NCBI GenBank assembly: GCA_902384685.1 | Contig: CABMCU010000058.1 | Location: forward strand, 1 to 62,526 | Reading direction: 5' to 3' | Origin: an uncultured archaeon | Lineage (GTDB): Archaea > Thermoplasmatota > E2 > DHVEG-1 | Length of the DNA: 62,526 bases | In this document: positions 9,616 to 48,715 of the stretch, in pieces | Layout of the letters: each line of letters begins with the position of its first letter | How positions within the stretch are numbered: position 1 is the stretch's first letter | The notes under the pieces: model-generated | Told to the model about the DNA's origin: nothing | Database searches by the model: none | Seen by the model: the letters and a program-made list of their open reading frames with translations, nothing else | Made by a program: the position numbers and the translations under genes

Positions 9616-9679
9616 ACCAAAAATGTTAAACGAATAGAACTCTATATATGCTTCGGAATCAAGCCAGGATTTGTTTCAT

Positions 9680-10033: not shown

Positions 10034-10050
10034 AGTATTTTTCGGAGAGT

Positions 10051-10374: not shown

Positions 10375-10756
10375 ACAAACGTTAGAAGAACTTGAAGAAG
10401 TACTTACAGAATTACGAGAGGAAAATAAAACAGTACCCATTATCGTAGAAGGAGACAAGGACATTGCCGCGTTACGGAAACTCGAAATGCCTGGCGAAAT
10501 CATCCGGTTCAATAAAGGACGTTCAGTTCCCGATTTCTGTGATATAATTGCCCAGAAGCATAAAAATATTATCCTTCTAACAGATTGGGATTGGCGTGGA
10601 AACAGGTTGTGTCTTTCGATTAAAAAACATCTTGAGAATTACGTAAACTGCAATCTGAAGTATCGTGAGGTCTTTACAAAACGAAGTATTTGTCGCACAG
10701 TGGAAGGGTTACCGTCGTGGATAGAGACGCTTAAGAACAAAATTCATCCAGAGTAA
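10364..10756 (+). CDS. Stand-alone Toprim-domain protein (small primase-like/RNase M5-like archaeal family)
   Basis: Acidic Toprim motifs VEGDKD and LTDWDWRG. Start set at ATG 10364, overlapping the upstream stop by 11 nt. Confidence 0.7.
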   Translation: MDYEQTLEELEEVLTELREENKTVPIIVEGDKDIAALRKLEMPGEIIRFNKGRSVPDFCDIIAQKHKNIILLTDWDWRGNRLCLSIKKHLENYVNCNLKYREVFTKRSICRTVEGLPSWIETLKNKIHPE

Positions 10757-10806
10757 CTGAATACTTTCATTACACTCTAAAGAAACATTAAAAGAAAAAA
10801 AATCTG

Positions 10807-17194: not shown

Positions 17195-18331
17195 ATGAGG
17201 GTTTTGCATCTTGCGGATACCCATCTTGGCTATTCTGCATACCGAAAAGCAACGGAAGAGGGTATCAACCAAAGGGAAATAGATGTATATGATGCGTTCA
17301 CCCAATGTATTGATTACGCAGTAAAAACAAAACCTGATCTTGTTCTTCATGCTGGTGATCTCTTTGATTCGGTTCGGCCAACAAACCGGGCGATTACGGT
17401 TGCCATTCAACAAATACTAAGGTTATCAAAAGAAAACATACCGTTCATCGTCGTCTCTGGGAACCATGAGACACCTAAACTTAGGGAAACTGGAAATATT
17501 TTTACTATCTTTGAACATCTGGATCACGTTTACCCAATCCATGACAATCGGTATGAAACCGTTTCTTTACAAACCAACAATGAAACAGTTATGATCCATG
17601 CGATTCCTCAGTGTCAAAATCCTAAAGAATTTGATGTGAATTTTAAAAAAATAGCGCTTGATAAGAAAATTGATTATAACTTACTTGTAGCGCACGGTGC
17701 GGTCGCAGGGATAAAGGAATTCAAAATGAATGAGTTCAACGAACTATTTATTCCCCTGAAGAATATTCAACAAGATTACGACTATATCGCCCTTGGTCAC
17801 TATCATATGTACACAAAACTACAGGAGAATGCTTTTTACTCTGGATCAACTGAACGTTTGAGCTTTTCCGAGGCGGGAAATCAGAAAGGATGCCTGGAAA
17901 TTGACCTCGGGCAAAAACTTAAACACAGGTTTATTCCTGTGAATATACGAAGTATGGTGGACGTTCCTCCCCTCGATTGTTTAACGCTTAGCGCTGAACA
18001 AATAGTAAGGAAAACAAAAGAAGCCATCTTGTCGATTGAGCCAAAGGATAAAATCATACGCATCCGTCTTGAGAACATCCCCGCACATGTTCAACGAGGA
18101 ATAGATTTTCATCAGTTACGAACATTGAGCAAAACCGCGGTGCATTTTGAGATTAAATCATCTTCTTTGAAAGCTGATGAAACCGCCCTGTCCGAGGGAT
18201 ATAAGATGGCATCACTTGCAGATGAATTTGAGAAATTCCTAAATACCCAACCGTTTTCTGAAAAGGAAATGTTACTGAAACTCGGCTTATACTACATTCA
18301 TAAGAGTGAAGAACAAGATGATTCAGCATGA
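17195..18331 (+). CDS. mre11: DNA double-strand break repair nuclease Mre11
   Basis: Phosphoesterase motifs HLADTHLG, GDLFD, GNHE, AHG, GHYH. Overlaps rad50 by 4 nt. Confidence 0.9.
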   Translation: MRVLHLADTHLGYSAYRKATEEGINQREIDVYDAFTQCIDYAVKTKPDLVLHAGDLFDSVRPTNRAITVAIQQILRLSKENIPFIVVSGNHETPKLRETGNIFTIFEHLDHVYPIHDNRYETVSLQTNNETVMIHAIPQCQNPKEFDVNFKKIALDKKIDYNLLVAHGAVAGIKEFKMNEFNELFIPLKNIQQDYDYIALGHYHMYTKLQENAFYSGSTERLSFSEAGNQKGCLEIDLGQKLKHRFIPVNIRSMVDVPPLDCLTLSAEQIVRKTKEAILSIEPKDKIIRIRLENIPAHVQRGIDFHQLRTLSKTAVHFEIKSSSLKADETALSEGYKMASLADEFEKFLNTQPFSEKEMLLKLGLYYIHKSEEQDDSA

Positions 18332-20433
18332 TACTCAAATCAATTTCCCTGAAAAATTTCCGTAAATTCAAGAATGTCTTCATAGAGTTCCCTGACGGCG
18401 TCACCGGTGTTGTTGGGTTAAACGGGGTAGGGAAATCAACCCTTTTTGAAGCATTCGCCTGGGTTCTTTATGGACCTGTTGCGACACGTACAGCAGTAGA
18501 TCAAATAAAACGGGAGGGTGCAGCACCTTCGGATCCGTGCCGTGTCGAAATCGAGTTCATTTTCGATGACGATACCTATCGAGTAGTCCGAGAAATGAGC
18601 GGAAAAAACCTGTCAGCATCTGGGATTGTGACTGTGAACGGAAAGATAGCTGCAAACGGTGCAGAACTCGTCAGTAAATTCATACAAAGGAAACTGGGGA
18701 TGGACTGGAAGTCATTCTACACCTCAATTTTTGCGAAACAGAAGGAATTGAACACGTTATCATCCATGAATCCAAGTGAACGACGACATCTTATATTACG
18801 GATGCTGGGTATTGATGCAGTCGATGATATCCTCAGCGAGATTAGGTCAGACACAAAAGAAAAAAAGAACCTCGTTGAAAAATTGGGATTTGACTTATTG
18901 GATGCGCACGGTACTGAAAAAATAACGGTGTATAATCAGGAATTACAACTCCTTGAAAAAAAACAAAAAGAACTTGTGAAGCAAATAGAAGAACAAAAGG
19001 AAAAGCGTCTTTCAATTGAGGCAGAACTTCGTCAAATAAAAAGAGATTATGATACAAAGAAACAATCGTACGAAAAAATCTACGCAACCAAAGAACAACT
19101 TGAGGAGAAAAAAAGCAGATTTGAAAAGAAACAATCTGTAGGAGAAGATATAAAAACCTTAGAAAAAACGCTTCATGAACGACAAGCGATTCTTAAAATA
19201 CAAAACGAGAAACTCACGATGTTTAAAAATCTAGAAAAAGATCTTCAGACCCTGGAACAACAACAGCAAAAAAACCATGATTCCATCCAGGCTATGGTTA
19301 AGAAACAGGAACAGAACAGAACACTGATGCATCGGCTTGAAGAGGATATCAAAGCGTTGACGACAAAGAAACAGCATATTGAAAAAATGGGACCACAAGC
19401 AAAATGCCCGACCTGCGAACGAGTACTCGGTGAACAACAACACACCCTCCTCAAACTATATTTAGAAGAACTCACAAAGAAGAAATATGATAACCAGAAG
19501 TTAATTGATGCTGAAAAAAAATTTACGACCGAGTATGAACGACTATCTCGAGAAAAACAAGCATTGCAGAAGAAAACCATCTTCCTCCATGGCCAAGTCG
19601 TTGATCGAGAGCGTCTCCAGACCACATTACACAATATCTCTGAGGAGATCCAACGGGAGATACAAAAGTTGGAAATTAAGAAAAAAGAATTAAAATCAAT
19701 CGGTACCATAGTGTTTGATGAAAAACAATATCTGCTGATACGAACAGGAATTAGTGAAGCCTATAGAAACTATCAAACATCACTAGCGAAACTCAACATC
19801 ATTAGAGAAAAACATCAGTCGATAATTTTAAAGCAGAAAGAACAAGAGGGCGACAAAAACCTCATCAACCAAAAAATAAAATCGATAGAGAAAAGCATCG
19901 AGGAGCAACAGAAACTTATAAAAAAACTCGGAGACGAACGACGTGATGTCCAACGCCTCAGCATACTCTCCGAAGTCATGGATTCCTACCGAACATACCT
20001 CATATCACAGATTCGGCCAACTCTATCCTCTCATGCATCTGAACTTTTTGACGAGCTTACCGAAGGAAAATACTCACAAATCGAGCTGGATGAAGACTAT
20101 AACCTCCTAGTGTACGATCAGGGGCAACCTTATCGCATTGAACGGTTCTCCGGAGGAGAAGAAGATCTGGCAAACCTTTGTATTAGACTGGCTATTTCTG
20201 AGATTATCACTGAGCGCGCAGGAAGTATCTTTAATTTTATTATTCTTGATGAAATCTTTGGCTCACAAGATCAGATACGGAAACAAAACATCATTAAAGC
20301 ACTAAATAGTTTCTCTTCAAAATTTCGACAGATCTTTTTGATTACGCATGTCGAGGAAATCAAACATTTTACTGAGAATACAATGACAATATCAGAAGAT
20401 GACAGTGGAATTAGTACGATAAAAGTAGAATAA
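18328..20433 (+). CDS. rad50: DNA double-strand break repair ATPase Rad50 (short coiled-coil version, 701 aa)
   Basis: Walker A GLNGVGKST, zinc hook CPTC in mid coiled-coil, signature SGGE, Walker B FIILDE. Confidence 0.9.
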   Translation: MILKSISLKNFRKFKNVFIEFPDGVTGVVGLNGVGKSTLFEAFAWVLYGPVATRTAVDQIKREGAAPSDPCRVEIEFIFDDDTYRVVREMSGKNLSASGIVTVNGKIAANGAELVSKFIQRKLGMDWKSFYTSIFAKQKELNTLSSMNPSERRHLILRMLGIDAVDDILSEIRSDTKEKKNLVEKLGFDLLDAHGTEKITVYNQELQLLEKKQKELVKQIEEQKEKRLSIEAELRQIKRDYDTKKQSYEKIYATKEQLEEKKSRFEKKQSVGEDIKTLEKTLHERQAILKIQNEKLTMFKNLEKDLQTLEQQQQKNHDSIQAMVKKQEQNRTLMHRLEEDIKALTTKKQHIEKMGPQAKCPTCERVLGEQQHTLLKLYLEELTKKKYDNQKLIDAEKKFTTEYERLSREKQALQKKTIFLHGQVVDRERLQTTLHNISEEIQREIQKLEIKKKELKSIGTIVFDEKQYLLIRTGISEAYRNYQTSLAKLNIIREKHQSIILKQKEQEGDKNLINQKIKSIEKSIEEQQKLIKKLGDERRDVQRLSILSEVMDSYRTYLISQIRPTLSSHASELFDELTEGKYSQIELDEDYNLLVYDQGQPYRIERFSGGEEDLANLCIRLAISEIITERAGSIFNFIILDEIFGSQDQIRKQNIIKALNSFSSKFRQIFLITHVEEIKHFTENTMTISEDDSGISTIKVE

Positions 20434-20451: not shown

Positions 20452-21408
20452 TTATTTTCTAAACCGCAGTTTTCGCTTTGGCCGTTCAATAGAGTCTGGT
20501 TGCATCTCTTGAGATGCTGAAAATTCGACTTCCTCGTCTGTGCTAATCGGAGCAGACTCAATGATGTTACTATGTTTCAGGTTTTCCACTGAATCAAATA
20601 GTTTTGCAAAAAGTCCCTCGTTAGATTCGAACCAGTTCTGCCAGCCTCGGAGATCCTCTTTTAGTTGCTTATTCTCCGATTCAGTCTCCTCATACAATCG
20701 GAATAATTTCGTGAGCCGTTCTTTTTCTTTGTCAAGCTCAGTTGAGGTTTCTTCAAATTTCGTTTTAAACTCGGCCAACTGTTCAAATCCACGGAGCTCC
20801 TCAACTTGTTTTTCTAGTCCACCGATGACGTCATCCTTTGTTATAAGGTCTCTGCGCATACTATCAATAGTGGTATCCATTTGGGTTCGAATGTTATCGA
20901 ATCTCATCACTTGCTGTTTCATATCTTCCATTTGCTGGACATCTTGCTCTCGCTCATTTATCTTCTCAGTTAGTGTCTGAATCCGTGCAGTTGCATCTCG
21001 TTCAAACTGCATGTGAACCTGCTCGGTATTACGTAGTTTCTCTTCGAGTTCCGCAGCTCGTTTCTCCTGTGCAGACAATGATTCCTCCTGGTTTTTATAG
21101 GCATCCCAGAGTTTCACCAGTCGTTCTTTTTCTTTCTCAAGCTCTACACTATAGCGTCGTGCTCCCTCTGCTGCTTCTTCCCGTCGTCGTTCCGATTCAG
21201 TAAGGCGCTGTTCAAACGAGCGAATCATGGAGTCCATTTGATTCAATCCGTCGAGATTTAGCATACTTTGGATTTTTGAAAGATCATCCATGCTTTTAGA
21301 AAATGAACTTTTTACGGAACCAAGTTCAGATGATGCTTCTTGTAGTCGTTCCATAAATGAGTTTGCTGAGCCTTTTATACTTACATTATCTTCTGTTTCT
21401 TCAACCAT
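20452..21408 (-). CDS. Coiled-coil protein with an internal duplication, function unknown
   Basis: 318 aa, E/K/R/Q/L-rich. Repeated block ELEKEKERLVKLWDAYKNQEE / ELDKEKERLTKLFRLYEETE. Convergent with rad50. Confidence 0.6.
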   Translation of the reverse strand: MVEETEDNVSIKGSANSFMERLQEASSELGSVKSSFSKSMDDLSKIQSMLNLDGLNQMDSMIRSFEQRLTESERRREEAAEGARRYSVELEKEKERLVKLWDAYKNQEESLSAQEKRAAELEEKLRNTEQVHMQFERDATARIQTLTEKINEREQDVQQMEDMKQQVMRFDNIRTQMDTTIDSMRRDLITKDDVIGGLEKQVEELRGFEQLAEFKTKFEETSTELDKEKERLTKLFRLYEETESENKQLKEDLRGWQNWFESNEGLFAKLFDSVENLKHSNIIESAPISTDEEVEFSASQEMQPDSIERPKRKLRFRK

Positions 21409-21543
21409 TATTCATGCTCTCCCAATAAATTAATTCTAGTCAATGCGAATAATGTCTAGCTATTTAAGCGTTATTATTTTTTTTCACTAACCATATTACA
21501 AAAATAAGTTTGCAAAAAAATCATCAATTTATGTATGTCTCCC

Positions 21544-21589
21544 TGATTGTTTATCTATTAATATCAATTTCTTTGATTTATCTATATTA
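21544..21589. promoter_or_regulatory. Direct repeat TGATT(GT)TTATCTAT(A)TTA, two copies 30 bp apart, upstream of the RHH gene
   Basis: Copies at 21544-21560 and 21574-21589, inside a ~300-bp AT-rich intergenic region. Confidence 0.4.
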
Positions 21590-21712
21590 TTCTTGCCTTT
21601 GATTTTTTTTTGTTTTTTATTAATGCTGCACAATTTAGTAAAATTTATATAGTAAATAGGATATTATTATATCGAAATAAAAAATAAGTTAATAAAGGGG
21701 AGTAGAAACATT

Positions 21713-21847
21713 ATGCCAAAAATATCGATTAATGTCTCTGATTATATGTATTGGAAATTACTTGGAAGCGGTGAAAACGTTTCATATATTGTTCAGCTCG
21801 CGTTAAGGGATTATTGGAGAGAAAGTCGAAAGGAAAAAAAGGAATAA
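21713..21847 (+). CDS. Small (44 aa) ribbon-helix-helix-like protein
   Basis: Below the track threshold: MPKISINVSDYMYWKLLGSGENVSYIVQLALRDYWRESRKEKKE*. GGGGAG lies ~10 nt upstream of the ATG. Confidence 0.45.
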   Translation: MPKISINVSDYMYWKLLGSGENVSYIVQLALRDYWRESRKEKKE

Positions 21848-22026
21848 CAAAGTAACACGTCTTCATTCCAAGCACCAAATTCTTCTATAATTTTTTAACT
21901 TTTTTTCTATTGACTAATAGAATTGAATTTAAACGAAAGTGTTTTATTTCATATTGATATTAACGTCAATAGCATCATAATGATTAATGAATCATTTAAT
22001 AGGTGGTATTGAGGAGAGTACACAAA

Positions 22027-23901
22027 ATGAGAGGTAAAAAAGGACTGAAAAATATAAACAAAAATAAAAACAATCTCATCACTTTTACCCTTTTTCTTAA
22101 TATAATCGAAAATAATGAAGCCATTCCAAAACAAAAACAACAGCTTCTCAAACCGAAAGAAAACAAAAAACTAGAAAAGGAACAAATGCGACTCCGACGG
22201 AGTGAGATACGACAAGCACGCATAGAAGAACGACTCCGTAAAAAACAAGAAAAACGCGTACTAAAAATAAAACTCGGTTCAAAAACAAACAGAATTGATG
22301 AGAAGTCACATGAGCAAAAATTAGTATTAAAAGAAAAACAAAGGAAAGACTACAACGAAATTGTAAAACAATTAGATTCCCCTGAAAAAAGCACTTTTAC
22401 AGGTGGTTTAAGAGATAATAAAATAATTAACGAAAAAAAAGGATTTGGATGGAAAGGACTTGGTTCAAGAAGGATTCTTTTTGATAATGAACGAAAAGAA
22501 TATCTCTACGAGGTTATCGAACCGCAATTGACTGAAAAACAGGAACAAACAAAAAACAAATTGATTTCTTTATTCAAGAAACATGCTGATATCGATGTGT
22601 ATGAAGGCGATGAAAAGACTAAATGGGAGATACTAGAAAAAGCCTTAGAAAAACTTCTTCAAGAGAAACAAATCAAATTACATAAAACAGAGAAAGATAT
22701 TATTTTATATTATATTTTCCGTGAATTTGTTGGATACGGACGAATCGATATTTTAATGCACGACCCAGATATAGAAGACATTTCATGCGATGGTCACGAA
22801 ATCCCTATCTTTATTGTACATAAACAGTATGAGTCCATCAAAACTAATATTATATATAAAGATGCAGACGAGTTAGATTCATTTGTCGTGAAATTATCAC
22901 AGATGTGCGGGAAACAAATATCTGTGTTTGAACCTGTCGTTGATGGTAAACTATCAGATGGATCACGTTTACAAGTCACACTTGGTCGAACGATTACAAT
23001 GCTATCGACCTTTACCATCCGAAGATTTCGGGAAGACCCTATGACCCCAATCGATCTTCTTAACAATAATACAATGTCTCTTGATCTTGCAGCATATTTT
23101 TGGTTAGCCATAGAAAAAGGATGTAATATTTTATTCTGTGGCGGGACGGCCACAGGGAAAACAACGATGCTAAACGCTCTTTCACTTTTTGTGCCATCGT
23201 CCTATAAAATTGTCTCGATTGAGGATACAAGAGAAATTAATCTCCCCCATGAAAACTGGATTGCTGGAACAACGCGATCAGGATTTACTTCGACAGAAGC
23301 GCTTAAAACCAGTCGGGATATCGACATGTTCGATCTTATTCGAGTCGCATTGCGTCAAAGACCACGTGTGATCATTGTAGGGGAGGTTCGAGGGAAAGAA
23401 GCCTACTCATTATTTCAAGCAATGACAACAGGTCATCTGTCCTATTCGACAGTACATGCAAGTGATATGCACACCCTCATCCAGCGCCTTGAGAACCCCC
23501 CGATCTCCTTGCCCCGCGCTCTGTTAACGTCCCTTGATATGATTGTATTTTTAAATTCTGTTGTTGTAAAGGGAAATCCGGTTCGACGTGTTACAAATGT
23601 TACAGAAATCATAGAATTAGATGCTGGGACAAATCGTCTGGTTACGATGACTCCTTTTGAATGGGTCGGAGGAGGTAATGATGACCGATTCCAAAACAAT
23701 GGCGCCAGCAGAATTCTCTATAAAATCAGAGTTGAGAACGGATGGAGTGACGAAGAACTTCATAAAGAACTGCAAAATCGCATTCAAGTTCTCGAATGGA
23801 TGAGAAAGAAAAACTTACGGTCATACATGGATGTTGGAAATGTTGTTGCAACCTACCTGAAAGATCCAACATCAATAATGAAAAAAACTATAAGGGATTG
23901 A
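22027..23901 (+). CDS. Type IV filament assembly ATPase (FlaI/ArlI/PilB/GspE superfamily) with a Lys-rich N-terminal extension
   Basis: Walker A CGGTATGKTT, Asp/Walker B region PRVIIVGEVRG, His box TGHLSYSTVHA. The first ~150 aa are K/E/Q-rich low complexity. ATG 22027 follows GAGGAG. Confidence 0.85.
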   Translation: MRGKKGLKNINKNKNNLITFTLFLNIIENNEAIPKQKQQLLKPKENKKLEKEQMRLRRSEIRQARIEERLRKKQEKRVLKIKLGSKTNRIDEKSHEQKLVLKEKQRKDYNEIVKQLDSPEKSTFTGGLRDNKIINEKKGFGWKGLGSRRILFDNERKEYLYEVIEPQLTEKQEQTKNKLISLFKKHADIDVYEGDEKTKWEILEKALEKLLQEKQIKLHKTEKDIILYYIFREFVGYGRIDILMHDPDIEDISCDGHEIPIFIVHKQYESIKTNIIYKDADELDSFVVKLSQMCGKQISVFEPVVDGKLSDGSRLQVTLGRTITMLSTFTIRRFREDPMTPIDLLNNNTMSLDLAAYFWLAIEKGCNILFCGGTATGKTTMLNALSLFVPSSYKIVSIEDTREINLPHENWIAGTTRSGFTSTEALKTSRDIDMFDLIRVALRQRPRVIIVGEVRGKEAYSLFQAMTTGHLSYSTVHASDMHTLIQRLENPPISLPRALLTSLDMIVFLNSVVVKGNPVRRVTNVTEIIELDAGTNRLVTMTPFEWVGGGNDDRFQNNGASRILYKIRVENGWSDEELHKELQNRIQVLEWMRKKNLRSYMDVGNVVATYLKDPTSIMKKTIRD

Positions 23902-23903
23902 TA

Positions 23904-25667
23904 ATGGCATCTACAACCTATTCAGAAATTTCACAAAAAGTATTAAAAAGAACAATCTCCAAAATACCCGATGAGATACAGATAGAACGAAACCTTGAGT
24001 TGGAAAAAGCAGGAATTTCAATAGACTATACACAATATTATGCGATGATACTTTTTAGTCTTATCCTTGGTTGTATTTCCTCATTACTCATCACTTTTTT
24101 TATTTATTTTCTGTTTCCATCAACATATTCTCTCCTTCTTTTCCTTCTCCTGCCAGCACTTGTCGTAGGTTCCATTGGTCTTTTCTTTTTATATTATCCG
24201 GGATATCGTATTAAAAGAAGAGCGTATAATATTGATCTGTTTTTGCCCTATGCTATTAATTTCATTAACTCAATGGCGGTTGCGGGTATCTCCCCATCAG
24301 AGATATTCACTACGTTAGCCTCAATTGATTTATACGGTGAATTGCAGACAGAAACGAAAAAAATTGCGAAAGAAATCAGTATCATGAATGTTGATAGCAT
24401 CACTGCATTAAAACATGCTATTGAGATTTCTCCCTCAAGAAAATTTCAGGAGTTTTTACAAGGAATCATTGGTACCATTCAATCAGGGAGTGAATTGCAT
24501 ATCTATCTGCAAAATTCTGTCAATAAACTTATGGACGAGGATTATGTGGCAAGACAAAAGGATCTTGATCTTCTCGGAGTTATTGCAGAGATTTTCGTTA
24601 CATGCGCAATCGCCTTCCCGATTTTCCTTGTCATTATCCTGACTGTCTTCGGTTTTTTCAGTAGCTCATCTGTCAGCTCGATCTTAATTCTCAATATTTT
24701 TTCTCTTCTTGTCATGCCGCTTATTTACGCTGCCTTTTATATCTTGATCCGGTCAACCAGTCTAGAAGACTTAAACAGAATATATTCTAAAGAAACTCTT
24801 ACTTTTCGGCAATATTTGAAAGAAAACGAGGCACCTATAACGATATTACTTCTCTGTTTCTTTATCGTAGTAATTTCCTATGTTGGTCTTCGTGTTATGG
24901 ATTATTTAGGGTATATTAGCTTTACGTTTTATCCACAGCTCGATTTCCTCTTCTTAGCTATTTTAATTCTGATAGGCCCGATCGGTGTATATAACTATTT
25001 TGAAGCACAAAAGAAGAAACAAATGCAATATCGATTACCTAATTTTCTGATTGAAGTCAGTGATTCGCTCTCCACTGGTGCAACAATTTTTGATTCGATA
25101 AAAGTAGCCTCAAAATCACACTATGGGCGATTGTCCCCAGAAATCAAAAAAATGCGATCTCAACTCTCATGGAATATCTCTGTAAAAGAAATCCTCATCG
25201 ACTTTGCCAATAGAATGAAATCAGCAATCGTTCATCGAATCATCATTAGCCTGAATAAAGGATTGGTAATGGGTGGAAACACGCCAAAGATATTCAGAGC
25301 AGCAGCCATCGAAGTCGGCCAAGTGAATCGACTAGAAAACCAACGGAAAGCCGCAATGTCAATTTATACGATCGTGATCCTCGTTTGCTTTTTTGTTTTA
25401 TTAGCGATCATTATCATTATGAACCTTACTATTTTCAAATCCTTTTTCGACTTACAAGATAAACAAGTAGGACAGATGGCAGGAGTAGTCTTTCATAAAA
25501 TCGATAAAATGGAGTTAAAATATTCAATGTATTCTTTTGTCTTTGTTCAAAGCATCGGTGCTGGTATATTAGCTGGTTTTATGATGGATGGAAAACTATC
25601 TTCAGGTATCAGATATAGTTGTATACTAGGTATTATATCCTTTATCATCTTTAAATTGACGTTCTAA
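23904..25667 (+). CDS. Type IV filament membrane platform protein (FlaJ/ArlJ/TadC, T2SSF-like, two repeats)
   Basis: ~587 aa with two homologous halves, each with a cytoplasmic helical segment and multiple TM helices. ATG lies 2 nt after the ATPase stop. Confidence 0.8.
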   Translation: MASTTYSEISQKVLKRTISKIPDEIQIERNLELEKAGISIDYTQYYAMILFSLILGCISSLLITFFIYFLFPSTYSLLLFLLLPALVVGSIGLFFLYYPGYRIKRRAYNIDLFLPYAINFINSMAVAGISPSEIFTTLASIDLYGELQTETKKIAKEISIMNVDSITALKHAIEISPSRKFQEFLQGIIGTIQSGSELHIYLQNSVNKLMDEDYVARQKDLDLLGVIAEIFVTCAIAFPIFLVIILTVFGFFSSSSVSSILILNIFSLLVMPLIYAAFYILIRSTSLEDLNRIYSKETLTFRQYLKENEAPITILLLCFFIVVISYVGLRVMDYLGYISFTFYPQLDFLFLAILILIGPIGVYNYFEAQKKKQMQYRLPNFLIEVSDSLSTGATIFDSIKVASKSHYGRLSPEIKKMRSQLSWNISVKEILIDFANRMKSAIVHRIIISLNKGLVMGGNTPKIFRAAAIEVGQVNRLENQRKAAMSIYTIVILVCFFVLLAIIIIMNLTIFKSFFDLQDKQVGQMAGVVFHKIDKMELKYSMYSFVFVQSIGAGILAGFMMDGKLSSGIRYSCILGIISFIIFKLTF

Positions 25668-25684
25668 CACACGAAGGAGAACCT

Positions 25685-27646
25685 ATGACAAAGAAGAGAC
25701 GTTCGAGCCAAGCAGTATCTGAAGTCCTTGATATTGTATTATTGTTAGGAATCACCATCGGTTTATTTGCTTTCCTGAATTACATTGTCTTCTCTTATTC
25801 TTTTCAACCCTCCGCTCCTTCAGTGAACCTCGTGGGATCAATCGACAAAACAAACGGAATTATAACCATTGAACACAATGGCGGAGAATCTCTCGATGGA
25901 AAAACACAAATAATAATAACGATAGGATCAGATACTACTCCAAGTAACGTAATTGATCTATTAAGTGATACAAACGGGGACGGAAAATGGAATTTTGGTG
26001 AAACCGTGCAATTTCCTTACTATGGAGACACAACTAGTTCATATATTCGAGCTATAGTAATAGATCCTTCAACAAATACTCTTATATTATCAGCAGTACT
26101 ACAACAAGGATCTACAGCTTCAGTAATCACTAACGATCCGCCAACCTTTACAAGCCCCGATCCAACAGGAGGAGGGATTCCAATTACGACGACTTTGCTA
26201 AGCATCACGATTCAGGATCCTGAAGGGGATCCCTTTAGTTGGACGATAACTACCTCGCCGAATATCGGGACAAGTTCAGGGAATAATGAGCTCAACGGAA
26301 CTAAAACCTGCACCATCGCTGGACTCGCCGACTCCACCACATACACCTGGACTGTAAAAGCCTTTGATGGGCACCACTGGACCAACAAAAACTATATCTT
26401 TATTACGAGTAGCTGTCCAGTGACAGATACATTGGTAAATACGATCAGTCCATATTTAGTATCCGTTAATCCGTTCATGATTACATCCACTGGTGATTCT
26501 GGTTTAGATAGTGTTACCTTGCATTATCGATGGAGCGATGATAACAGTAGCTGGGATGGTGGAAATTCGTCTTGGAATAATGATACAGTTGATTGGAACG
26601 GCCCGAATAAGGATAGTAGTGCAGATAAGGGAATAGAAACAAACTTCATAAATGTCCAAGGTACATCCCCAGATACAAATGTGATGATATTGCAGGAGGC
26701 TAATCAAGGTTGGAGTTCTGGTAGTGAGAACCTGAATGTAAATAATTTTGATAACACAGCTAAGGGCTGGTCTGCAACTACTACTCCCCCATATCTTAAT
26801 GCTGATGATTCTGAAAATGTTTTCACTCAATCTAATGGTGCAACAGAGGCATGGTTTAATTTCTCGGACACAACAGGTCCGAGTGCTGGTGTATATTCCG
26901 TTATCTTGTATGTGAAGGCATGGGGTGACGGTAATGACTGGGTGAACCCATACATAGATTATACTGGTGGTGCTGGTTCAGACATGGGTGATTTCGGTAA
27001 GCATTCATCTGAAAGCACTTATGACAGTATAAATCTTGGAACAACATTTACTCGAGCTCAAGTCAATGCTATGCGACTTAAGCTTATTTATACAAGATCA
27101 CCTCCAGCTAGCAATCTTTTTGTAGACCATGCTTATCTTGCTGTTTCTTGGAATGCTGTTACCGATTATGAACTCAATACGGAATATCAGTTCAACAATT
27201 CTGCATATAATAGAGACAATGAACAGATTTGTTTTTACTTAACAGCGGCTCCAACTGAAACATTAGTAGTAAGTTATTATAACGCGGGTTGGGTAAGTCT
27301 TGGCAACATTGTTCATACTGGATGGACTAATTTCACTGCAAATGGACTTACGAATGTTACTTATAATATTCAGATTAAAGATCAGAACCAAACGAATGAA
27401 ATAACTCAACACACTTGGACTATTGATGTAATCATGCTTCACACATGGAATAGTACTGGGGGCTCCCATGGGCAAAATTGGGCCATTTGGTCTGACGCGA
27501 ACAACCCTGATACATCGACTCCGTGGAGTTGGAATTTTAACTTCCCGAAAGGTATCGGATATTATGAGTTTTATAGTATAGGCAAATGTGGGGGCAACAT
27601 CGAAACCGCTCCTGTAAGTGCTGATGCGAGATGTCAGAAAACGTAG
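25685..27646 (+). CDS. Giant pilin-like protein: archaeal Pilin_N (DUF1628-type) N-terminus fused to ~500 aa of extracellular domains
   Basis: MTKKRRSSQAVSEVLDIVLLLGITIGLFAFL class III-like signal. ..ITIEHNGGESL.. pilin-domain pattern. W/N/S/T-rich remainder with many N-x-S/T sequons. AAGGAG RBS. Confidence 0.7.
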   Translation: MTKKRRSSQAVSEVLDIVLLLGITIGLFAFLNYIVFSYSFQPSAPSVNLVGSIDKTNGIITIEHNGGESLDGKTQIIITIGSDTTPSNVIDLLSDTNGDGKWNFGETVQFPYYGDTTSSYIRAIVIDPSTNTLILSAVLQQGSTASVITNDPPTFTSPDPTGGGIPITTTLLSITIQDPEGDPFSWTITTSPNIGTSSGNNELNGTKTCTIAGLADSTTYTWTVKAFDGHHWTNKNYIFITSSCPVTDTLVNTISPYLVSVNPFMITSTGDSGLDSVTLHYRWSDDNSSWDGGNSSWNNDTVDWNGPNKDSSADKGIETNFINVQGTSPDTNVMILQEANQGWSSGSENLNVNNFDNTAKGWSATTTPPYLNADDSENVFTQSNGATEAWFNFSDTTGPSAGVYSVILYVKAWGDGNDWVNPYIDYTGGAGSDMGDFGKHSSESTYDSINLGTTFTRAQVNAMRLKLIYTRSPPASNLFVDHAYLAVSWNAVTDYELNTEYQFNNSAYNRDNEQICFYLTAAPTETLVVSYYNAGWVSLGNIVHTGWTNFTANGLTNVTYNIQIKDQNQTNEITQHTWTIDVIMLHTWNSTGGSHGQNWAIWSDANNPDTSTPWSWNFNFPKGIGYYEFYSIGKCGGNIETAPVSADARCQKT

Positions 27647-27666
27647 AAAGGAGAGAGTAGATTATA

Positions 27667-28536
27667 ATGAAAATGTCAATAAAGAAAACAACAGACAATG
27701 CAGTAGTTGGTGTTATCACTGCGATATTACTCATAGGTCTTATCGTTGCGATCATCTCACTTATTCAAACAATGTATATTCCAAAAATCATGGAACAGCG
27801 TGAAGCAGACCATATGGATAAGGTAGCAGAACAATTCACAGATCTTACTGCTGTAATCGACACTCAAGCAGCCAATCCAACAAACACCATGCCTATCGCA
27901 ACGTCGATTACGCTCGGGAGTAAAGAATTACCATATATGTTATCAACTAGAGCATATGGCACATTAGAAATTTTGGATAAGGCGAGTTCGATTACTATTA
28001 TCGGCAATCCATCTCACCTGCCATTTAAAATTGGTAGAATTACCTATTCATCAATGAACGCATATTTTCTTAATCAAAATTATTCCTATGAGGCTGGGGC
28101 ATTGATCGTTAGTCAATTGGAGGAGGGAAATTTGATGATGATTCGACCTAGTTTTTCTGCTGCAATTAATAGTTCGACGTTAGACATTTTTTTTGATGTT
28201 GTGAACATTACCAGTATTGGTGAGAAGACTATTGCCTCTGGTTTTGGCACATATCCGATACAAACAGAGTTTTATAATACGACAAATTTCACTTTTGCTG
28301 ATGTTACTAGTATGACTATTACTACCCCATTTTCGAATGCCTGGTATTTTTTTATACGAAGCTCATTTATAGGAGCAGGTATAAATGAAAATGATTTTCA
28401 CCTTCCACCGCCTATAGGGCAGGATCTTGTATTAGATGGTTTTTCATCATCTGATTTTAGTTCCGTACGGGTTATATTAAAAATAATTAATATTCGAGCC
28501 CAAATCGGCCCTGGTTGGGTCCAGCAAAATCATTAA
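27667..28536 (+). CDS. Pilin-like protein (289 aa) with class III-type signal peptide
   Basis: KKTTDNAVVGVITAILLIGLIVAIISLI N-terminus. AGGAG RBS. Confidence 0.6.
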   Translation: MKMSIKKTTDNAVVGVITAILLIGLIVAIISLIQTMYIPKIMEQREADHMDKVAEQFTDLTAVIDTQAANPTNTMPIATSITLGSKELPYMLSTRAYGTLEILDKASSITIIGNPSHLPFKIGRITYSSMNAYFLNQNYSYEAGALIVSQLEEGNLMMIRPSFSAAINSSTLDIFFDVVNITSIGEKTIASGFGTYPIQTEFYNTTNFTFADVTSMTITTPFSNAWYFFIRSSFIGAGINENDFHLPPPIGQDLVLDGFSSSDFSSVRVILKIINIRAQIGPGWVQQNH

Positions 28537-28638
28537 TACAAGGGAAAAAGATTATATAAATAGAAACTTTAATATACCAACAAATTTAATTATATTCATA
28601 TTAAAATTAATAAATTGTTGTATATATGGGGATTATTT

Positions 28639-30888
28639 ATGAAAAATTCACGAAGTAATGAGGCGATTTCTCAAATAATCGGTGAAATAATTCTTTTAGC
28701 AATAACGGTCACTTCCGTATCAGTCATAGCTATGCAAATATTATCGACACCTGGACCTCAAGACACAACCATTGTTACCATCATTGGAAAAATAGAAGGA
28801 GGACACCCTGTTTTTGAACTTCAACGTGGAGAAAATTTATCACGTGATACAAAACTCATTATAAATATATCGGAAAGATATAACTACAGTGAATATACTC
28901 TTTATGATTTTCAAAAATATATACACGACCAAAAGTGGAATATTGGAGAACAAATTATCCTCCCACAAGGAAACATTACAGGATTAAACGATAATGGACC
29001 ACGAGTAGAGGCAACAATAATTGATACAAAAACCAATGCAATTGTCTTCTGGGGGATCCTTCAAGAAGGCATCATTACACGATATAAAGGAGGGATATGG
29101 CACTTCAACGAGTCATACTGGAGCGGTATCTACCATGACGTCAATGATAGCTCTGGAAATTCAAATCATGGTATAGCAAAGCCCTTTTTTAATAAGCCAA
29201 AAATTATTAATGGTATCGACAAAAATGGTGGATATTTTGATAAAACAAATTATATCGAAGTCCCTACAAAATGGTCTATCAACATAACCGATCATATAAC
29301 CGTCGCAGCATGGATGAAACCGTACACCTCAGATTTTATATCTTATACTTCAACATTACCGAATAAATTTGGTTTTACCCCCTATATTATAAATGTCGCA
29401 GATAACATTTATGCGATAATAAGTGAAGAGCAAGGATCTGCTGGTTTGTTACAAACAATGAATATCACTTCAAATGGAGAAAATGTTACCATTATTCCAT
29501 ATCATGGCGAAGCCCGCTTCGGATATGCACAAGGAAATCAACGAAACCTCCGACCAATAATTACTAAAATAAAAGAAAAAATACTTAATACTCCTTCAAT
29601 GGTACTAATCGCCTATAATAATAACTCTGGGGGGAATAAGTTTTTTACGGAATTAAGAACCTATAATATTTCAAATAATGGTTCTATATATTATACAAAA
29701 AATTACCTCACGCTTCCGGAACAGGGCCCGAGTAATGGTAACCGACCAAATCTACAAAAAATTACAGATACCCTCTGTGTTATAGCTTACCAGACAAATA
29801 ACGGAGGAGGTATCATAAAAACACTAACAATATCATCGAATGGGACAATAACGCCCACAAATTACAATTATCTAGAACCTACTTTATCTGAACCTAACTT
29901 TTTCCCTATTAATAAGAACATTTATGGCCTTGCATATCGTGGTTCCTCAAATAAGGGTATTATTAAAACATTTAATTTCAACAACTCCACCGGATATATC
30001 ACAAATATTAGCTCGTGGAATTATTCTGAAACTGCGGCATTTCAACCTTGTGTCAGACATGTTTCAGGGAATATTTTTGCAGTAGTATACAGAAGTGATA
30101 CTGCTAAAGGAATTGTAAAAACTTTTGAAATTTTACCGAATGGTCGTTTTGGACCGACACCGGAATACAAAAATATTACATTAGCAAAAGTTAATTGCTA
30201 TACTCCATGGATAGTTCACGATGTTGCTGATACTTATTCTGTTGTATATTCAGACCAAGATGACACCGGAAATAATGCAGGATGTAATGGATATTATATT
30301 GAACTTGAATTAGGAAAAAATGGTTCTATTAAAATAACAGATTCTGGAAAAACATTTGAACAGGAGAGGTGTTATTCTCCAATAATTCTACCCATAAATG
30401 AACATATTTTCGTCATTGTCTACAAAGGACCGAGTGGCGGTGGATCTGGTCATCCAGGATGGCTAATAACAGTTGCGTATCCAGGAATGAAAGGCATTTT
30501 CAAAGGAGATGCCTTTTTTATTTCTTCAAATACAACCCAAGTTGAAGGAAGTATTAATAATGTTAAAATATATTATAATGATACTGATCTCGGCGAAAAC
30601 TGGCATCATATCAGCTTAACGTACGATGGAACAAATATAATACTTTTTGTCCATGATATTAATGGTGGATTAATAAATAAAACCTCAAAATATTATCCGA
30701 ATCATAAAATTACTCTAACCCCAATTGATTTATATTTAGGACGAAATTATTATGGATATATTGATGAGATAGCGATTTATGAAAAAGCTCTTAATGACTG
30801 TCAAATAAATTATATATCCCAACACCTACATGAGCAAAGAATGTTAGAGTATTATTTATTAGGAAATAATTGCTGGCCTATTTGGTAA
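28639..30888 (+). CDS. Giant pilin-like protein: Pilin_N domain + LamG/concanavalin-like lectin domain interrupted by a seven-repeat (propeller-like) insertion
   Basis: MKNSRSNEAISQIIGEIILLAITVTSV signal. LamG halves are WHFNESYW..DSSGNSNHG..ITVAAWMKP and NWHHISLTYDGTNIILFV..LYLGRNYYGYIDEIAIYEKAL. Seven ~50-aa repeats lie between them. Own TATA at ~28553. Confidence 0.7.
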   Translation: MKNSRSNEAISQIIGEIILLAITVTSVSVIAMQILSTPGPQDTTIVTIIGKIEGGHPVFELQRGENLSRDTKLIINISERYNYSEYTLYDFQKYIHDQKWNIGEQIILPQGNITGLNDNGPRVEATIIDTKTNAIVFWGILQEGIITRYKGGIWHFNESYWSGIYHDVNDSSGNSNHGIAKPFFNKPKIINGIDKNGGYFDKTNYIEVPTKWSINITDHITVAAWMKPYTSDFISYTSTLPNKFGFTPYIINVADNIYAIISEEQGSAGLLQTMNITSNGENVTIIPYHGEARFGYAQGNQRNLRPIITKIKEKILNTPSMVLIAYNNNSGGNKFFTELRTYNISNNGSIYYTKNYLTLPEQGPSNGNRPNLQKITDTLCVIAYQTNNGGGIIKTLTISSNGTITPTNYNYLEPTLSEPNFFPINKNIYGLAYRGSSNKGIIKTFNFNNSTGYITNISSWNYSETAAFQPCVRHVSGNIFAVVYRSDTAKGIVKTFEILPNGRFGPTPEYKNITLAKVNCYTPWIVHDVADTYSVVYSDQDDTGNNAGCNGYYIELELGKNGSIKITDSGKTFEQERCYSPIILPINEHIFVIVYKGPSGGGSGHPGWLITVAYPGMKGIFKGDAFFISSNTTQVEGSINNVKIYYNDTDLGENWHHISLTYDGTNIILFVHDINGGLINKTSKYYPNHKITLTPIDLYLGRNYYGYIDEIAIYEKALNDCQINYISQHLHEQRMLEYYLLGNNCWPIW

Positions 30889-30907
30889 CCGGATGACGCT
30901 TGATCAT

Positions 30908-31702
30908 TTATTCAATTTCAGAATAGATCTCTTTATTGGGATATACAACGATTCCTTTATCGGTAATGTTCATTGAAACGATCTTCTTCTGATGTTTAAT
31001 TCCTCGCATTTTCAAGACTTCAATAGCGGTTTGTCTTGTATTCTGTCGTCTAATATTATAAATAACAATAACGCCATCTGCTAAAAATTCCTCGACACCG
31101 GTTGGTGAAAATACTTCTGGTATCTGCTGTGTTTCGGTGACAAGAAAGGTCGTCGCACCAATTTTTTCAAAAAACCTGAATAGCCGTTCGACATAAAATC
31201 GGTATGATTGTTCTTTTCCTTGAAACGTCGAGGAGATTGCAGTGAGCGAGTCAAGGACAATAATATCGGGTTTAAATCCCACGGTATCCGCAATGGAGAG
31301 AGGCTCTAATTCCATCAACAGTGGATCGACTTCCTTTGTCATCATCGCTTGAATATCACTACCACCTTTTTTATCATAATAATAAATCTCAGCAGTCAAA
31401 AATCGTTTTATTTTAAGATTACCAGCACTGATAAGTGCCTTGGGATTCCATCCAAAATCATTCATATGTTCTATCAGACGTTCCTCTGATTCCTCAAATC
31501 CCATAAAATAACATTTTTTCCCTCGAGACGCATGATGCGCAATAATCTGCAAACATAAATTCGTTTTTCCACTACCTGTGCCACCAGCAACAAGCACTGA
31601 AGATCCTTTCGGAATCCCATGGTCAAAAAGGTCATCTAATCCTGGAACACCTGTTGCTATATATTTAGAATCCTTATCATCCGTACCCACAATTTTCACC
31701 AC
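30908..31702 (-). CDS. KaiC-like / RecA-superfamily single-domain ATPase (ArlH/FlaH- or RadB-like size)
   Basis: GVPGLDDLF..GIPKGSSVLVAGGTGSGKT Walker A, Walker B IIVLDSL. GTG start, exact start uncertain. Confidence 0.75.
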   Translation of the reverse strand: MVKIVGTDDKDSKYIATGVPGLDDLFDHGIPKGSSVLVAGGTGSGKTNLCLQIIAHHASRGKKCYFMGFEESEERLIEHMNDFGWNPKALISAGNLKIKRFLTAEIYYYDKKGGSDIQAMMTKEVDPLLMELEPLSIADTVGFKPDIIVLDSLTAISSTFQGKEQSYRFYVERLFRFFEKIGATTFLVTETQQIPEVFSPTGVEEFLADGVIVIYNIRRQNTRQTAIEVLKMRGIKHQKKIVSMNITDKGIVVYPNKEIYSEIE

Positions 31703-31991
31703 CTATACATTTTTTTTTATGAATAAATTACGTAAGTATAGTCGTATAACCCTTAATATTCTTTTCTCATTTTTTCAAAAAAAATTCTTTTTTCAACGGA
31801 TGTTTTTCTTAATGATAAAGATCCAGACAAGCATATAATCACCATTACTTTAGTAATAAATACATGACAGTGTTTCGTACCAACAAAGACGATATTTATT
31901 GCACTTCAGTTATTATGAGCCGCTAAACTAATAAACTATGATTTGTATACTATTCAATGAATATACCTACACGATTTGGAGATGGAATGGG

Positions 31992-32657
31992 ATGGGAATA
32001 CTCGAGAGATTTAGAGAAAGTAAGTTTTCAAAAATGATCCAAAAGATTTTTGGAAAGAAACACGCAAAGATCGGAATCTATGGACCACCAAACGTTGGGA
32101 AAACCACGCTGGCGAATCGAATTCTGCGGGATTGGACCGGGGATATCATGGGAAGTGTTTCTGAGGTTCCTCATGAAACACGACGGGCAAAATGGAAAAA
32201 CAACATCAGGGTTGATAACGGCGGATCATCCTTGACGATGGATCTTGTAGATACCCCGGGGATTGCGACAAAAATCGATTACAAAGAATTCATGAACATG
32301 TACGGGATGACAAAAGATGACTCACGATTACGAGCAAAGGAGGCAACCGAGGGAGTTATCGAAGCAATCCGTTGGCTTGATGATATCGACGGCGTAGTCC
32401 TAGTCATGGATGCAACACAAGATCCGTTCACCCAGGTCAATGTCACTATCATCGGGAACCTCGAGGCACGGAATCTCCCTATTCTCATTGCAGCAAACAA
32501 AATCGATGCGGAGAACGCCAGCCCGGCGACGTTGAAATCCGCGTTTCCACAACATCCAGTGATTCCTATCAGCGCACTTACTGGATATAACACGGAGAAC
32601 TTATATTCGATGATGGTGAAAGAATTCAGCAAAAAACGTCATAAACAGAGGAGGTAA
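31992..32657 (+). CDS. Small GTP-binding protein (archaeal Era/EngB-like)
   Basis: G1 GPPNVGKT, G3 DTPG, G4 NKID, in order. ATG 31992 preceded by GGAG. Confidence 0.75.
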   Translation: MGILERFRESKFSKMIQKIFGKKHAKIGIYGPPNVGKTTLANRILRDWTGDIMGSVSEVPHETRRAKWKNNIRVDNGGSSLTMDLVDTPGIATKIDYKEFMNMYGMTKDDSRLRAKEATEGVIEAIRWLDDIDGVVLVMDATQDPFTQVNVTIIGNLEARNLPILIAANKIDAENASPATLKSAFPQHPVIPISALTGYNTENLYSMMVKEFSKKRHKQRR

Positions 32658-32662
32658 GAACA

Positions 32663-33040
32663 ATGGGGAAAAAAGAAAGTGGAATTGCATTCAATCTGAT
32701 CTCCCATCAGAAACTTGAGAATCTCTCCTCCTCAGAAAAACTCGAATATATATTAAAAGAAGTCAAAGAGGGAAGAATCCTTGTCTTAGAACACGGTCTC
32801 ACTCCGACAGAACAAACACAACTCATAGAACATACCATGAAAGAAATCAATCATGACACCTTCATCGGCATTGAGATCGGTGGATACGAAAATGAAAAAG
32901 TCGGGTTCTTCCAGCGGGTATTCGGTGTCGCGAAGAAACCCCGCATGACCGTCATCGGACCAGCACATCTCCTCAGGATGGTTCATAAAGATAATGACAT
33001 GATTGAAACAACGATCATTCCTGGGAAAGGAGCAAATTAA
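32663..33040 (+). CDS. Conserved archaeal protein of unknown function (DUF2073-like, from memory)
   Basis: 125 aa. Stop overlaps the next ATG (TAATG). Family assignment is recollection only. Confidence 0.5.
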   Translation: MGKKESGIAFNLISHQKLENLSSSEKLEYILKEVKEGRILVLEHGLTPTEQTQLIEHTMKEINHDTFIGIEIGGYENEKVGFFQRVFGVAKKPRMTVIGPAHLLRMVHKDNDMIETTIIPGKGAN

Positions 33041-33573
33041 TGCCACATCAATGTCTCAAATGTGGCTATATCTTCGAAGAAGGATCTTCACAACTCTTGA
33101 AAGGATGCCCAGGATGTGGGGGAAACAGATTTTTTTTCACAAAACAACCACTCAATGAAACAGAACGCGACATCATGAGCAAGGAGATCGGTCAGGATCT
33201 CACCACCAGAATCATGGAGCTTGCTATCGAAAAAAACAAGAATGTGGCCAAAGGGACCGAAACCTGGATCAGACTGAAACCCAAAGATCTGCGAAAGATG
33301 ATCGAAGACCAAATCGAACAAGAAAAACCAGAAAAAGAAATGAACCTCAGTGAACCAATAAGTGATGACCAAAGGACCGCAATCATTGAAAAAATCAAGG
33401 AGGAAGCAGATCATTCCGATACACCGGAGACCATCGAGGTAGAACAACCAGGGAAATACCATATCGACCTCAAAGGACTCCTGGAGAAAGAACCGATTGT
33501 CATCGAAAAAGATGGAACCTATACGATTCATCTGCCATCTTTGTTTAAAATGCATGAGGAAAAGAAAAAATAG
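33040..33573 (+). CDS. Zn-ribbon-containing protein with an acidic C-terminal half (DUF2072/COG3364-like, from memory)
   Basis: N-terminal CLKCG..x..CPGCGG zinc ribbon. E/K-rich remainder. Confidence 0.55.
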   Translation: MPHQCLKCGYIFEEGSSQLLKGCPGCGGNRFFFTKQPLNETERDIMSKEIGQDLTTRIMELAIEKNKNVAKGTETWIRLKPKDLRKMIEDQIEQEKPEKEMNLSEPISDDQRTAIIEKIKEEADHSDTPETIEVEQPGKYHIDLKGLLEKEPIVIEKDGTYTIHLPSLFKMHEEKKK

Positions 33574-48692: not shown

Positions 48693-48715
48693 TCTCTGTA
48701 TTCCATCAATTGTCT

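Follow-up and report, generated by a model that had tools for sequence, protein, structure and literature searches.

Two modular pilins with large adhesin-like cargo in a type IV pilus locus of an uncultured Thermoplasmatota archaeon

What does a type IV filament locus assemble when its pilin-like proteins carry hundreds of residues of adhesin-like domains? This question is raised by a tight operon at 21.7-31.7 kb of a 62,526-nucleotide (nt) stretch of DNA, hereafter the window, from an uncultured archaeon (Thermoplasmatota; E2; DHVEG-1; assembly GCA_902384685.1, contig CABMCU010000058.1). The operon encodes a ribbon-helix-helix (RHH)-like open reading frame (ORF), an assembly ATPase, a platform protein and three pilin-like proteins of 653, 289 and 749 amino acids (aa), and it is faced by a convergent gene for a KaiC-like ATPase. 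An earlier note on this DNA had described three large, cargo-carrying pilins. Here, the locus is found to be a real type IV pilus gene cluster, not an archaellum, in which two of the three proteins (653 and 749 aa) are modular; the 289-aa protein is a DUF7289 protein without an extra module, and because of this the trio is better described as two modular pilins and one mid-sized pilin-like protein. In essence, a design known from bacteria appears here in an archaeal form not described before, with no new kind of machine on present evidence. Relatives' loci are designated below by L-numbers and database protein records by P-numbers, with L001, L002, L007 and L008 being SM1-50-like relatives.

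The assignment to archaeal type IV filaments, as made in the earlier note, is upheld by the assembly ATPase, the two-repeat platform and the pilin-type N-termini, and all genes of the pilus locus were confirmed at the coordinates of Table 1 from the ORF list and from Pfam and NCBIfam scans. The ATPase matches Pfam T2SSE (2e-31) and contains the Walker A motif GGTATGKTT, in agreement with its previous placement in the FlaI/PilB family, and it also carries a PilB3_C domain (1.8e-6; 28.4 bits against a cut-off of 27; residues 561-629), while an N-terminal extension of ~150 aa, rich in Lys and Glu, precedes the conserved core. Its closest match in the PDB is A. fulgidus GspE2 (2OAP, 1.5e-111), with FlaI at 7e-80. 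The platform is a polytopic protein of the TadC/PilC/FlaJ family, encoded by a single gene, where two stretches match T2SSF (2e-22), as expected from the two-repeat FlaJ/TadC-type architecture proposed before. The convergent KaiC-like ATPase, likewise recognized in the earlier note at the 3′ end of the operon, is a single-domain protein (Pfam KaiC, 6e-50; NCBIfam KaiC_arch_3, 2.6e-33). These three families are homologous to those of the archaellum, but the scores against the archaellum models are far below the equivalog cut-offs (378 bits against 550 for FlaI, 101 against 550 for ArlJ, and 41 against 215 for ArlH), and neither an archaellin-like ORF nor ArlF/G/C/D/E/X is present in the window. 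An archaellum, which the earlier note had also discounted, is therefore rejected.

The pilin-type N-termini consist of a short basic leader, an A followed by V/I-S-E/Q, and then ~20 hydrophobic residues. This motif is found in 35/35 aligned homologues of the 749-aa protein and in 25/26 of the 653-aa protein, where the exception (P0076) is truncated at its N-terminus. Pfam Pilin_N matches both proteins (1.3e-12 for the 653-aa and 1.4e-7 for the 749-aa protein), which share a paralogous pilin module of ~145 residues; this archaeal domain takes the place of the bacterial N_methyl-type class III motif (IPR012902), for which no Pfam match is obtained at E <= 0.1. The 289-aa protein is not matched by Pfam Pilin_N. 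A first pilin-N hidden Markov model (HMM) had included a DUF7289 sequence, making its match to the 289-aa protein circular, and an HMM built without DUF7289 sequences was used instead; this model aligns residues 6-44 of the protein to the leader and hydrophobic helix with 16.7 bits, and leaves the very hydrophobic platform protein unmatched. Of the three Pilin_N-type N-termini proposed initially, the sequences were correct and two bear the domain, but the third is represented by the DUF7289 match and this alignment.

Both the 653-aa and the 749-aa protein combine a pilin module, a linker and a domain that is not specific to type IV pili, the combination by which modular pilins are recognized (Raynaud et al., 2021). 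In the 749-aa protein, the AlphaFold2 (AF2) model, computed with 35 homologues, has a mean predicted local distance difference test score (pLDDT) of 76.7, with values mostly between 80 and 95 over residues ~240-600, and in it an N-terminal helix (residues 8-35) leads into a small beta head, with a body behind it that is all-beta. The domains comprise the pilin module (1-145), a LamG/ConA-like domain in two halves (~146-238 and 613-735), and a seven-bladed beta-propeller between them (~239-612). On the intact protein, Laminin_G_3 (1.1e-11) covers only the C-terminal half of the LamG domain, at residues 661-731. When residues 145-240 and 611-749 are joined in a chimera, profile positions 2-150/151 are matched in one stretch, while the excised 374-residue middle matches no Pfam family. 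Foldseek searches of the PDB return beta-propellers throughout, with the top TM-scores (TMt 0.65-0.75) given by the seven-bladed Photorhabdus PLL/PHL lectins. Because of the chimera, the model and the Foldseek results, the cargo is assigned as a LamG/ConA-like domain with a nested seven-bladed propeller, and the lectin fold that the earlier note had seen in one protein is supported by both Laminin_G_3 and the PLL/PHL-like propeller.

N-x-S/T sequons had been thought to be abundant in two of the proteins. This applies to the 749-aa protein, with 22 sequons against 10.8 +/- 2.9 expected from composition, but not to the 653-aa protein, where 10 are found against 13.3 expected. Cytoplasmic proteins contain 0.2-0.5 sequons per 100 residues. 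Two other window genes included in the count encode secreted-type proteins, a NosD/CarboxypepD_reg protein at 5350-6681(-) and a transglutaminase-like protein with CARDB at 45112-46674(-), and these hold 15 and 13 sequons, respectively, a 2-3 fold excess over composition like that of the 749-aa pilin.

The LamG pilins form a family of 73 clusters at 90% identity, in which all members with a named organism come from Thermoplasmatota or Thermoplasmatales metagenome-assembled genomes (MAGs), labelled 'LamG domain-containing protein' or 'hypothetical protein'. In a profile search of 1.84 billion representatives with this family, LamG repeats dominate numerically, and ~45 of the best 150 representatives (50%-identity clusters; hand count) match end to end in a single stretch. 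A single-protein scan of GTDB genomes gave no match, and an alignment-based scan found three species representatives with a full-length copy, the other matches being bacterial and LamG-only. The propeller-blade repeat of ~46 residues and the LamG unit recur in pilins of 1,000-1,300 aa with many more blades (P0142, P0066), and also in giant proteins of 2,000-7,000 aa with up to 43 matched stretches; because of this recurrence, the cargo of the 749-aa protein is regarded as a widely reused surface-protein cassette. A full-length LamG pilin of 25% identity also lies at 1052-3175 of L009, a 3.4-kb contig binned as 'Planctomycetaceae bacterium', which is probably a mis-binned archaeal contig rather than a case of horizontal transfer.

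The 653-aa protein is built on the same plan with a different cargo. Its AF2 model (pLDDT 78.8, predicted TM-score 0.44) contains an N-terminal helix (9-37) and a pilin head to ~140, then a Pro/Thr-rich linker of low model confidence (~143-170) and a string of beta-sandwiches. These beta-sandwiches resemble fn3, Ig and carbohydrate-binding module (CBM) domains, and the linker is presumably flexible. The Pfam fn3 match is weak, and Foldseek returns only generic multi-beta-sandwich matches (fn3 arrays, the SiiE adhesin, CBMs and reelin repeats). Homologues of 410-1003 aa keep the N-terminal ~145 aa and differ in their C-terminal architectures, with variable counts of fn3 units, 'VDSNxSNVD...TETNF' units and beta-sandwich units of ~95 aa. 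Pfam, AF2 and Foldseek agree, in line with the earlier note, that two pilin-like proteins of the locus bear several hundred residues of adhesin/lectin type.

The 289-aa protein matches Pfam DUF7289 (1.8e-7; 31.4 bits, cut-off 27), and no further cargo domain is identifiable in it. No record was returned by an exact-sequence look-up, no solved relative by a sequence search of the PDB, and no mention of DUF7289 by the literature searched. In relatives, the DUF7289 gene always adjoins the modular pilins (52-64% identity). The protein is, judging by its sequence, a probable minor pilin, and its all-beta character is compatible with the arCOG02911 minor pilins of 250-550 aa that are typical of clade 2 systems (PMC4858521).

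The order of the module, from the small upstream ORF through to the KaiC gene in its convergent position, is identical in L005 and L006, while the six- to seven-gene module is rearranged in L001, L002, L004, L007, L008 and L010. The platform is encoded by one gene in the window, L004, L005, L006 and L010 and by two in L001, L002, L007 and L008, where the DUF7289 gene and the 653-aa orthologue also stand in inverted order. In these same four relatives, the 653-aa orthologue is a plain pilin of 143-168 aa. A DUF2341 protein of ~1015-1020 aa lies next to the trio in L001 and L002. Directly upstream of the machinery in L001 and L007 are two or three extra PilA-like pilins of 155-166 aa, with the trio present as well, and L001 has a Peptidase_A24/Arc_PepC_II gene ~5 kb from the ATPase gene. 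The co-occurrence of the small PilA-like genes with the trio in L001 and L007 indicates that the trio is not the sole pilin set of the system. The idea that the pilins of this system are uniformly giant, drawn in the earlier note from a single window, is not supported in view of these small pilins and of the short orthologues of the 653-aa protein.

How fast each part of the module changes was read from its identity to the closest relatives, L005 and L006. The assembly machinery is the most conserved, at 80-85% for the ATPase, 79-81% for the platform and 84% for the KaiC-like ATPase, which keeps its convergent position (58% identity to L004), while the DUF7289 protein reaches 62-64% and the LamG pilin 44-47% overall. 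Within the LamG pilin, comparison with the L005-type proteins P0005 and P0007 gives 65-77% for the pilin module (transmembrane helix and head), 47-54% for the LamG halves and 43-44% for the propeller. The cargo therefore changes faster than the machinery, and a conserved carrier with diverging cargo is the pattern expected of exposed adhesive tips.

At 1278-22262 of L004, a 712-kb contig, the pilin sets are duplicated. Beside modular pilins of 710 and 753 aa, this stretch holds genes for a CLIPPER/VWA_2 protein and a 95-aa pilin fragment, and two that are DUF7289-like; behind them come a KaiC-family cluster (four or five genes), histidine kinases and a response regulator, which suggests sensory control of the pilus system. 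In L010 (Thermoplasmatota), the ATPase and platform genes at 5549-11036 are followed by Pilin_N proteins of 1,240 and >596 aa. In this group of loci, giant modular pilins with varied architectures appear to be the norm.

We favour, with moderate confidence, the reading that the locus encodes a System 2-type pilus in which the trio forms a minor-pilin adhesion complex at the tip, with the major pilin and the prepilin peptidase encoded elsewhere. Several features are shared with the pili of euryarchaeal clade 2, or System 2 (Makarova, Koonin & Albers 2016, PMC4858521; Sivabalasarma & Albers 2026, preprint, bioRxiv 10.64898/2026.04.22.720090): an N-terminally extended ATPase with PilB3_C, a platform encoded by a single gene, a mid-sized all-beta pilin-like protein (DUF7289, cf. 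arCOG02911), large proteins of adhesin-like type encoded in the locus, and a KaiC-family neighbour. In System 2, the major pilin is often encoded in trans. Where the window departs from System 2 is in the covalent fusion of the adhesin-like domains to pilin modules (the LamG/propeller unit and the variable string of beta-sandwiches), in its lineage of uncultured Thermoplasmatota, and in the platform, which is split into two genes in some relatives.

In the proposed mechanism, the ATPase and platform would draw proteins with class III signals out of the membrane and assemble them into a polymer; the leaders would be cleaved by an A24 prepilin peptidase presumed to be encoded elsewhere in the genome. 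The three pilin-like proteins of the operon would act as accessory (minor) pilins that nucleate assembly, and as nucleators they would come to lie at the distal tip. There, the 653-aa protein with its beta-sandwich stalk and the 749-aa protein with its LamG-propeller head may serve as adhesins or lectins for glycans or particles, while a small PilA-like major pilin, also encoded elsewhere, would make up the shaft. The RHH-like ORF and the KaiC-like ATPase would be conserved regulators. KaiC association with archaeal type IV pili has been noted (PMC4858521), and the KaiC-like ATPase here is a candidate for regulating or partnering the assembly ATPase. The 44-aa RHH-like ORF is held to be a real gene because a 66-71% identical peptide is encoded directly upstream of the ATPase gene in both L005 and L006. 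It has no match in Pfam or NCBIfam, so the RHH assignment made in the earlier note comes from the sequence pattern; the conserved ORF and the fitting pattern stand, but a family match does not. On that pattern, it is a candidate transcriptional regulator of the module.

The tip complex is favoured because a conserved carrier is joined to fast-evolving cargo, because the cargo differs among close relatives, and because PilA-like pilins accompany the trio in L001 and L007. The relatives' small pilins, together with the frequency of major pilins in trans, favour a role of the trio as minor or tip pilins over one as the body of a filament. In archaea, the gene for the major pilin often lies at a distance from the machinery genes (PMC4858521, PMC12448462): in H. 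volcanii, the PilB3C3 machinery operon lacks a major pilin and PilA1-6 are supplied in trans (PMC4858521), and in Cuniculiplasma divulgatum (Thermoplasmatales), ~500 kb separate the major pilin gene from those of the machinery (PMC12448462).

Several points weigh against this reading. Searches of the 62.5-kb window, and of +/-10 kb around the locus in L005 and L006, yield neither a major pilin nor a peptidase, and because of this their provision in trans is an assumption. Within the window, the first pilin-N HMM run against all six-frame ORFs recovers only the three reported proteins and no small pilin, and a Peptidase_A24 query against the six-frame ORFs of the 62.5 kb returns nothing, as do Pfam scans of the other long ORFs that were checked; the absence of a prepilin peptidase from the window, reported in the earlier note, is thus confirmed. 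Cleavage is predicted after Ala10 in the 653-aa, Ala12 in the 289-aa and Ala9 in the 749-aa protein. At position -2 relative to this putative site, an uncharged residue (Q, N or H) is common, in contrast to the canonical FlaFind motif, so that the N-termini agree with the strict motif only in part. The placement in clade 2 derives from the PilB3_C and DUF7289 Pfam matches and from locus features rather than from a phylogeny. In addition, distant relatives have a normal-sized pilin as the orthologue of the 653-aa protein, and this pilin could itself build the shaft.

This last point leads to a different arrangement, in which the 653-aa protein, possibly with the 749-aa protein, is itself the main polymerising subunit of a 'bottle-brush' filament and each subunit bears a module of 500-600 residues. 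On such an account, which we consider unlikely, a shaft pilin descended from an ancestor of 143-168 aa would have gained interchangeable C-terminal cassettes of 300-850 residues, leaving a filament or short pseudopilus coated with lectin or adhesin modules along its whole length. In favour of this account, no small pilin occurs in the window or within +/-10 kb in L005 and L006, the platform gene is followed immediately by that for the 653-aa protein, the ordinary-sized orthologues of this protein in the four SM1-50-like relatives are possible shaft subunits, and the Pro/Thr linker could permit radial display of the cargo. However, the C-terminal architecture differs among close relatives (451, 599, 653 and 753 aa), and such variability is typical of tip adhesins, not of a shaft subunit constrained by packing. 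No type IV filament with a major subunit this large is known to us, which also counts against it. The PilA-like small pilins that accompany the trio in L001 and L007, and the common provision of archaeal major pilins in trans (PMC4858521, PMC12448462), point away from it as well. If true, a giant-subunit display filament for the capture of glycans or particles would have no described counterpart among type IV filaments.

Nor does the machinery have to build a filament at all, since the Sulfolobus bindosome (BasEF) provides a precedent in which type IV machinery places class-III-signal cargo on the cell surface, and a 2026 preprint proposes that class III signal peptide binding proteins 'functionalise' type IV filament machineries (bioRxiv 10.64898/2026.04.22.720090). 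The trio could then form a short membrane-anchored stub, a pseudopilus or a surface layer that captures polysaccharide or particles. The operon contains only accessory-type class III signal proteins, the cargo folds are of carbohydrate-binding types, and BasE is the second-best NCBIfam match of the ATPase (3.9e-57). That match reaches 194 bits against a cut-off of 1000, however, and BasF 17 against 1300; the module has no solute-binding-protein domain and no ABC transporter, and its cargo genes lie inside the operon. A bindosome as such is rejected on these scores and on the missing solute-binding domain, while the broader proposal of display without a filament appears quite improbable, given also the PilB3_C of a pilus-forming system on the ATPase and the small PilA-like pilins adjoining the module in L001 and L007. 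Least credible is a degenerate or inactive paralogous pil locus, whose large proteins are perhaps no longer linked functionally to the machinery. Many of the multiple euryarchaeal System 2 loci make no visible pili, as in H. volcanii and Halobacterium, where one of several pil loci forms visible pili (PMC4858521). Yet the genes here are all intact and tightly spaced, the module is kept across many divergent lineages with its pilin modules maintained, and the machinery is 79-85% identical to that of relatives, which argues for purifying selection; inactivity is very improbable.

With the tip adhesion complex thus retained as the favoured reading, the closest likeness is found in bacteria. Streptococcus sanguinis possesses a small PilA, a modular PilB (vWA) and a PilC with Ig-like and ConA-like lectin modules; a tip complex has been modelled from these proteins, of which PilC is a glycan binder (PMC9934059, PMC8179133). 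As in the window, one small pilin-like protein stands beside two pilins with a linker-grafted functional module, one module belongs to the ConA/LamG lectin superfamily, and adhesion at the tip is predicted. In contrast, the archaeal proteins carry Pilin_N instead of the bacterial N-methylation motif, their sequences are unrelated to those of S. sanguinis, and their cargo is larger and includes the nested seven-bladed propeller. The relation to bacterial modular pilins is thus one of analogy, not of family membership. The published survey of modular pilins searched IPR012902 proteins, and its results are bacterial only, with archaea unmentioned (PMC8179133).

A large adhesin with a propeller and/or LamG-like domain, associated with the pilus tip, is also a feature of the PilY1/PilC tip adhesins of bacterial T4aP and of the archaeal clade 1 DUF2341 'PilY-like' proteins. 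PilY1, which is itself no pilin, attaches to minor pilins, whereas the propeller/LamG unit of the window is fused to its own pilin module, and the window propeller gives no Pfam match to the PilY1 propeller family. Surveys do note large adhesin-like or class-III-signal proteins in euryarchaeal clade 2/System 2 loci (PMC4858521; bioRxiv 10.64898/2026.04.22.720090). In the literature searched, no description was found of archaeal modular pilins, of the window's family or of a LamG cargo with a nested propeller. The suggestion in the earlier note of an undescribed filament therefore holds only in part, for the family and its architecture, but adhesin-like type IV pilus proteins and bacterial modular pilins were already known.

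The features of the locus are collected in Table 1. With refined starts, the genes are co-directional with intergenic gaps of 2, 17, 20 and 102 nt, reproducing the range of 2-102 nt given before. The ATPase start (ATG 22027) has a GAGGAG motif 10 nt upstream and agrees with the start called in L006, the platform start (ATG 23904) follows the ATPase stop after a 2-nt gap, and the start of the LamG pilin (ATG 28639) yields the same length as database record P0001. The AT-rich spacer, previously put at ~300 bp, has the measured length and composition listed; it probably serves as the promoter region of the operon, and a TTTATATA-like element can be read within it ~60 nt 5′ of the small ORF.

Table 1. 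Coordinates and basis of assignment for the features of the pilus locus (window positions).
Feature	Position	Strand	Basis
AT-rich intergenic region, 304 bp, 22.4% GC	21409..21712	.	Base composition
RHH-like small ORF, 44 aa	21713..21847	+	Conservation in L005/L006; strand-helix-helix pattern
Assembly ATPase, 624 aa	22027..23901	+	Pfam T2SSE and PilB3_C; ORF open from 22003
Platform protein, 587 aa	23904..25667	+	Pfam T2SSF x2; ORF open from 23796
Modular pilin 1, 653 aa	25685..27646	+	Pfam Pilin_N, weak fn3
DUF7289 pilin-like protein, 289 aa	27667..28536	+	Pfam DUF7289
Modular pilin 2 (LamG pilin), 749 aa	28639..30888	+	Pfam Pilin_N and Laminin_G_3; ORF open from 28615
KaiC-like ATPase, 264 aa, convergent with operon	30908..31702	-	Pfam KaiC

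Divergent from the operon, at 20452-21408(-), is a gene for a 318-aa coiled-coil protein with only weak SMC/Rad50-like coiled-coil matches; it was rejected as a member of the module because it is beside the pilus locus in no relative examined. A mobile element was also rejected, since the flanks consist of core chromosomal genes (ribosomal S3Ae, CTP synthase, Mre11/Rad50, TFB and UvrABC), and the other long ORFs of the window checked by Pfam are ordinary chromosomal genes. Directly 3′ of the module, at 31938-33573(+), are a small GTPase (MMR_HSR1), OapB (PF09846, 2e-35) and OapC (PF09845, 3e-25), an 'origin-associated protein' trio that hints at a chromosomal replication origin close by; no Orc1/Cdc6 was found among the window ORFs scanned. 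Repair genes include a complete bacterial-type UvrB-UvrC-UvrA nucleotide-excision-repair cluster at 55981-62362(-), Mre11 and Rad50 at 17195-20433, and Nre at 10807-12099. A 585-aa ORF with 14 cysteines (13966-15723(+)), flanked by the genes for ribosomal protein S3Ae and for a pyridine-nucleotide disulphide oxidoreductase, has no Pfam match even at E <= 0.001. Archaeal RNase P RNA (172 bits) and two adjacent tRNAs are encoded at 44715-45012(-) and 48621-48833(+), and the second tRNA, being 118 nt long, probably contains an intron.

Modular pilins explain how simple type IV filaments acquire functions, and they have so far been characterised only in bacteria. The locus described here presents the same design in archaea, where a conserved pilin carrier is combined with adhesin or lectin cargo that evolves fast and can be swapped. 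One of the cargoes, with its propeller nested within LamG, is architecturally unusual. The LamG-pilin family appears sizeable and is unannotated, with members from uncultured Thermoplasmatota in public metagenomes and MAGs. For the biology of these archaea, the locus supplies candidates for attachment to particles, glycans or partner cells, and it offers a tractable test case for the assembly of tip complexes in archaeal pili, a topic that is essentially unstudied.

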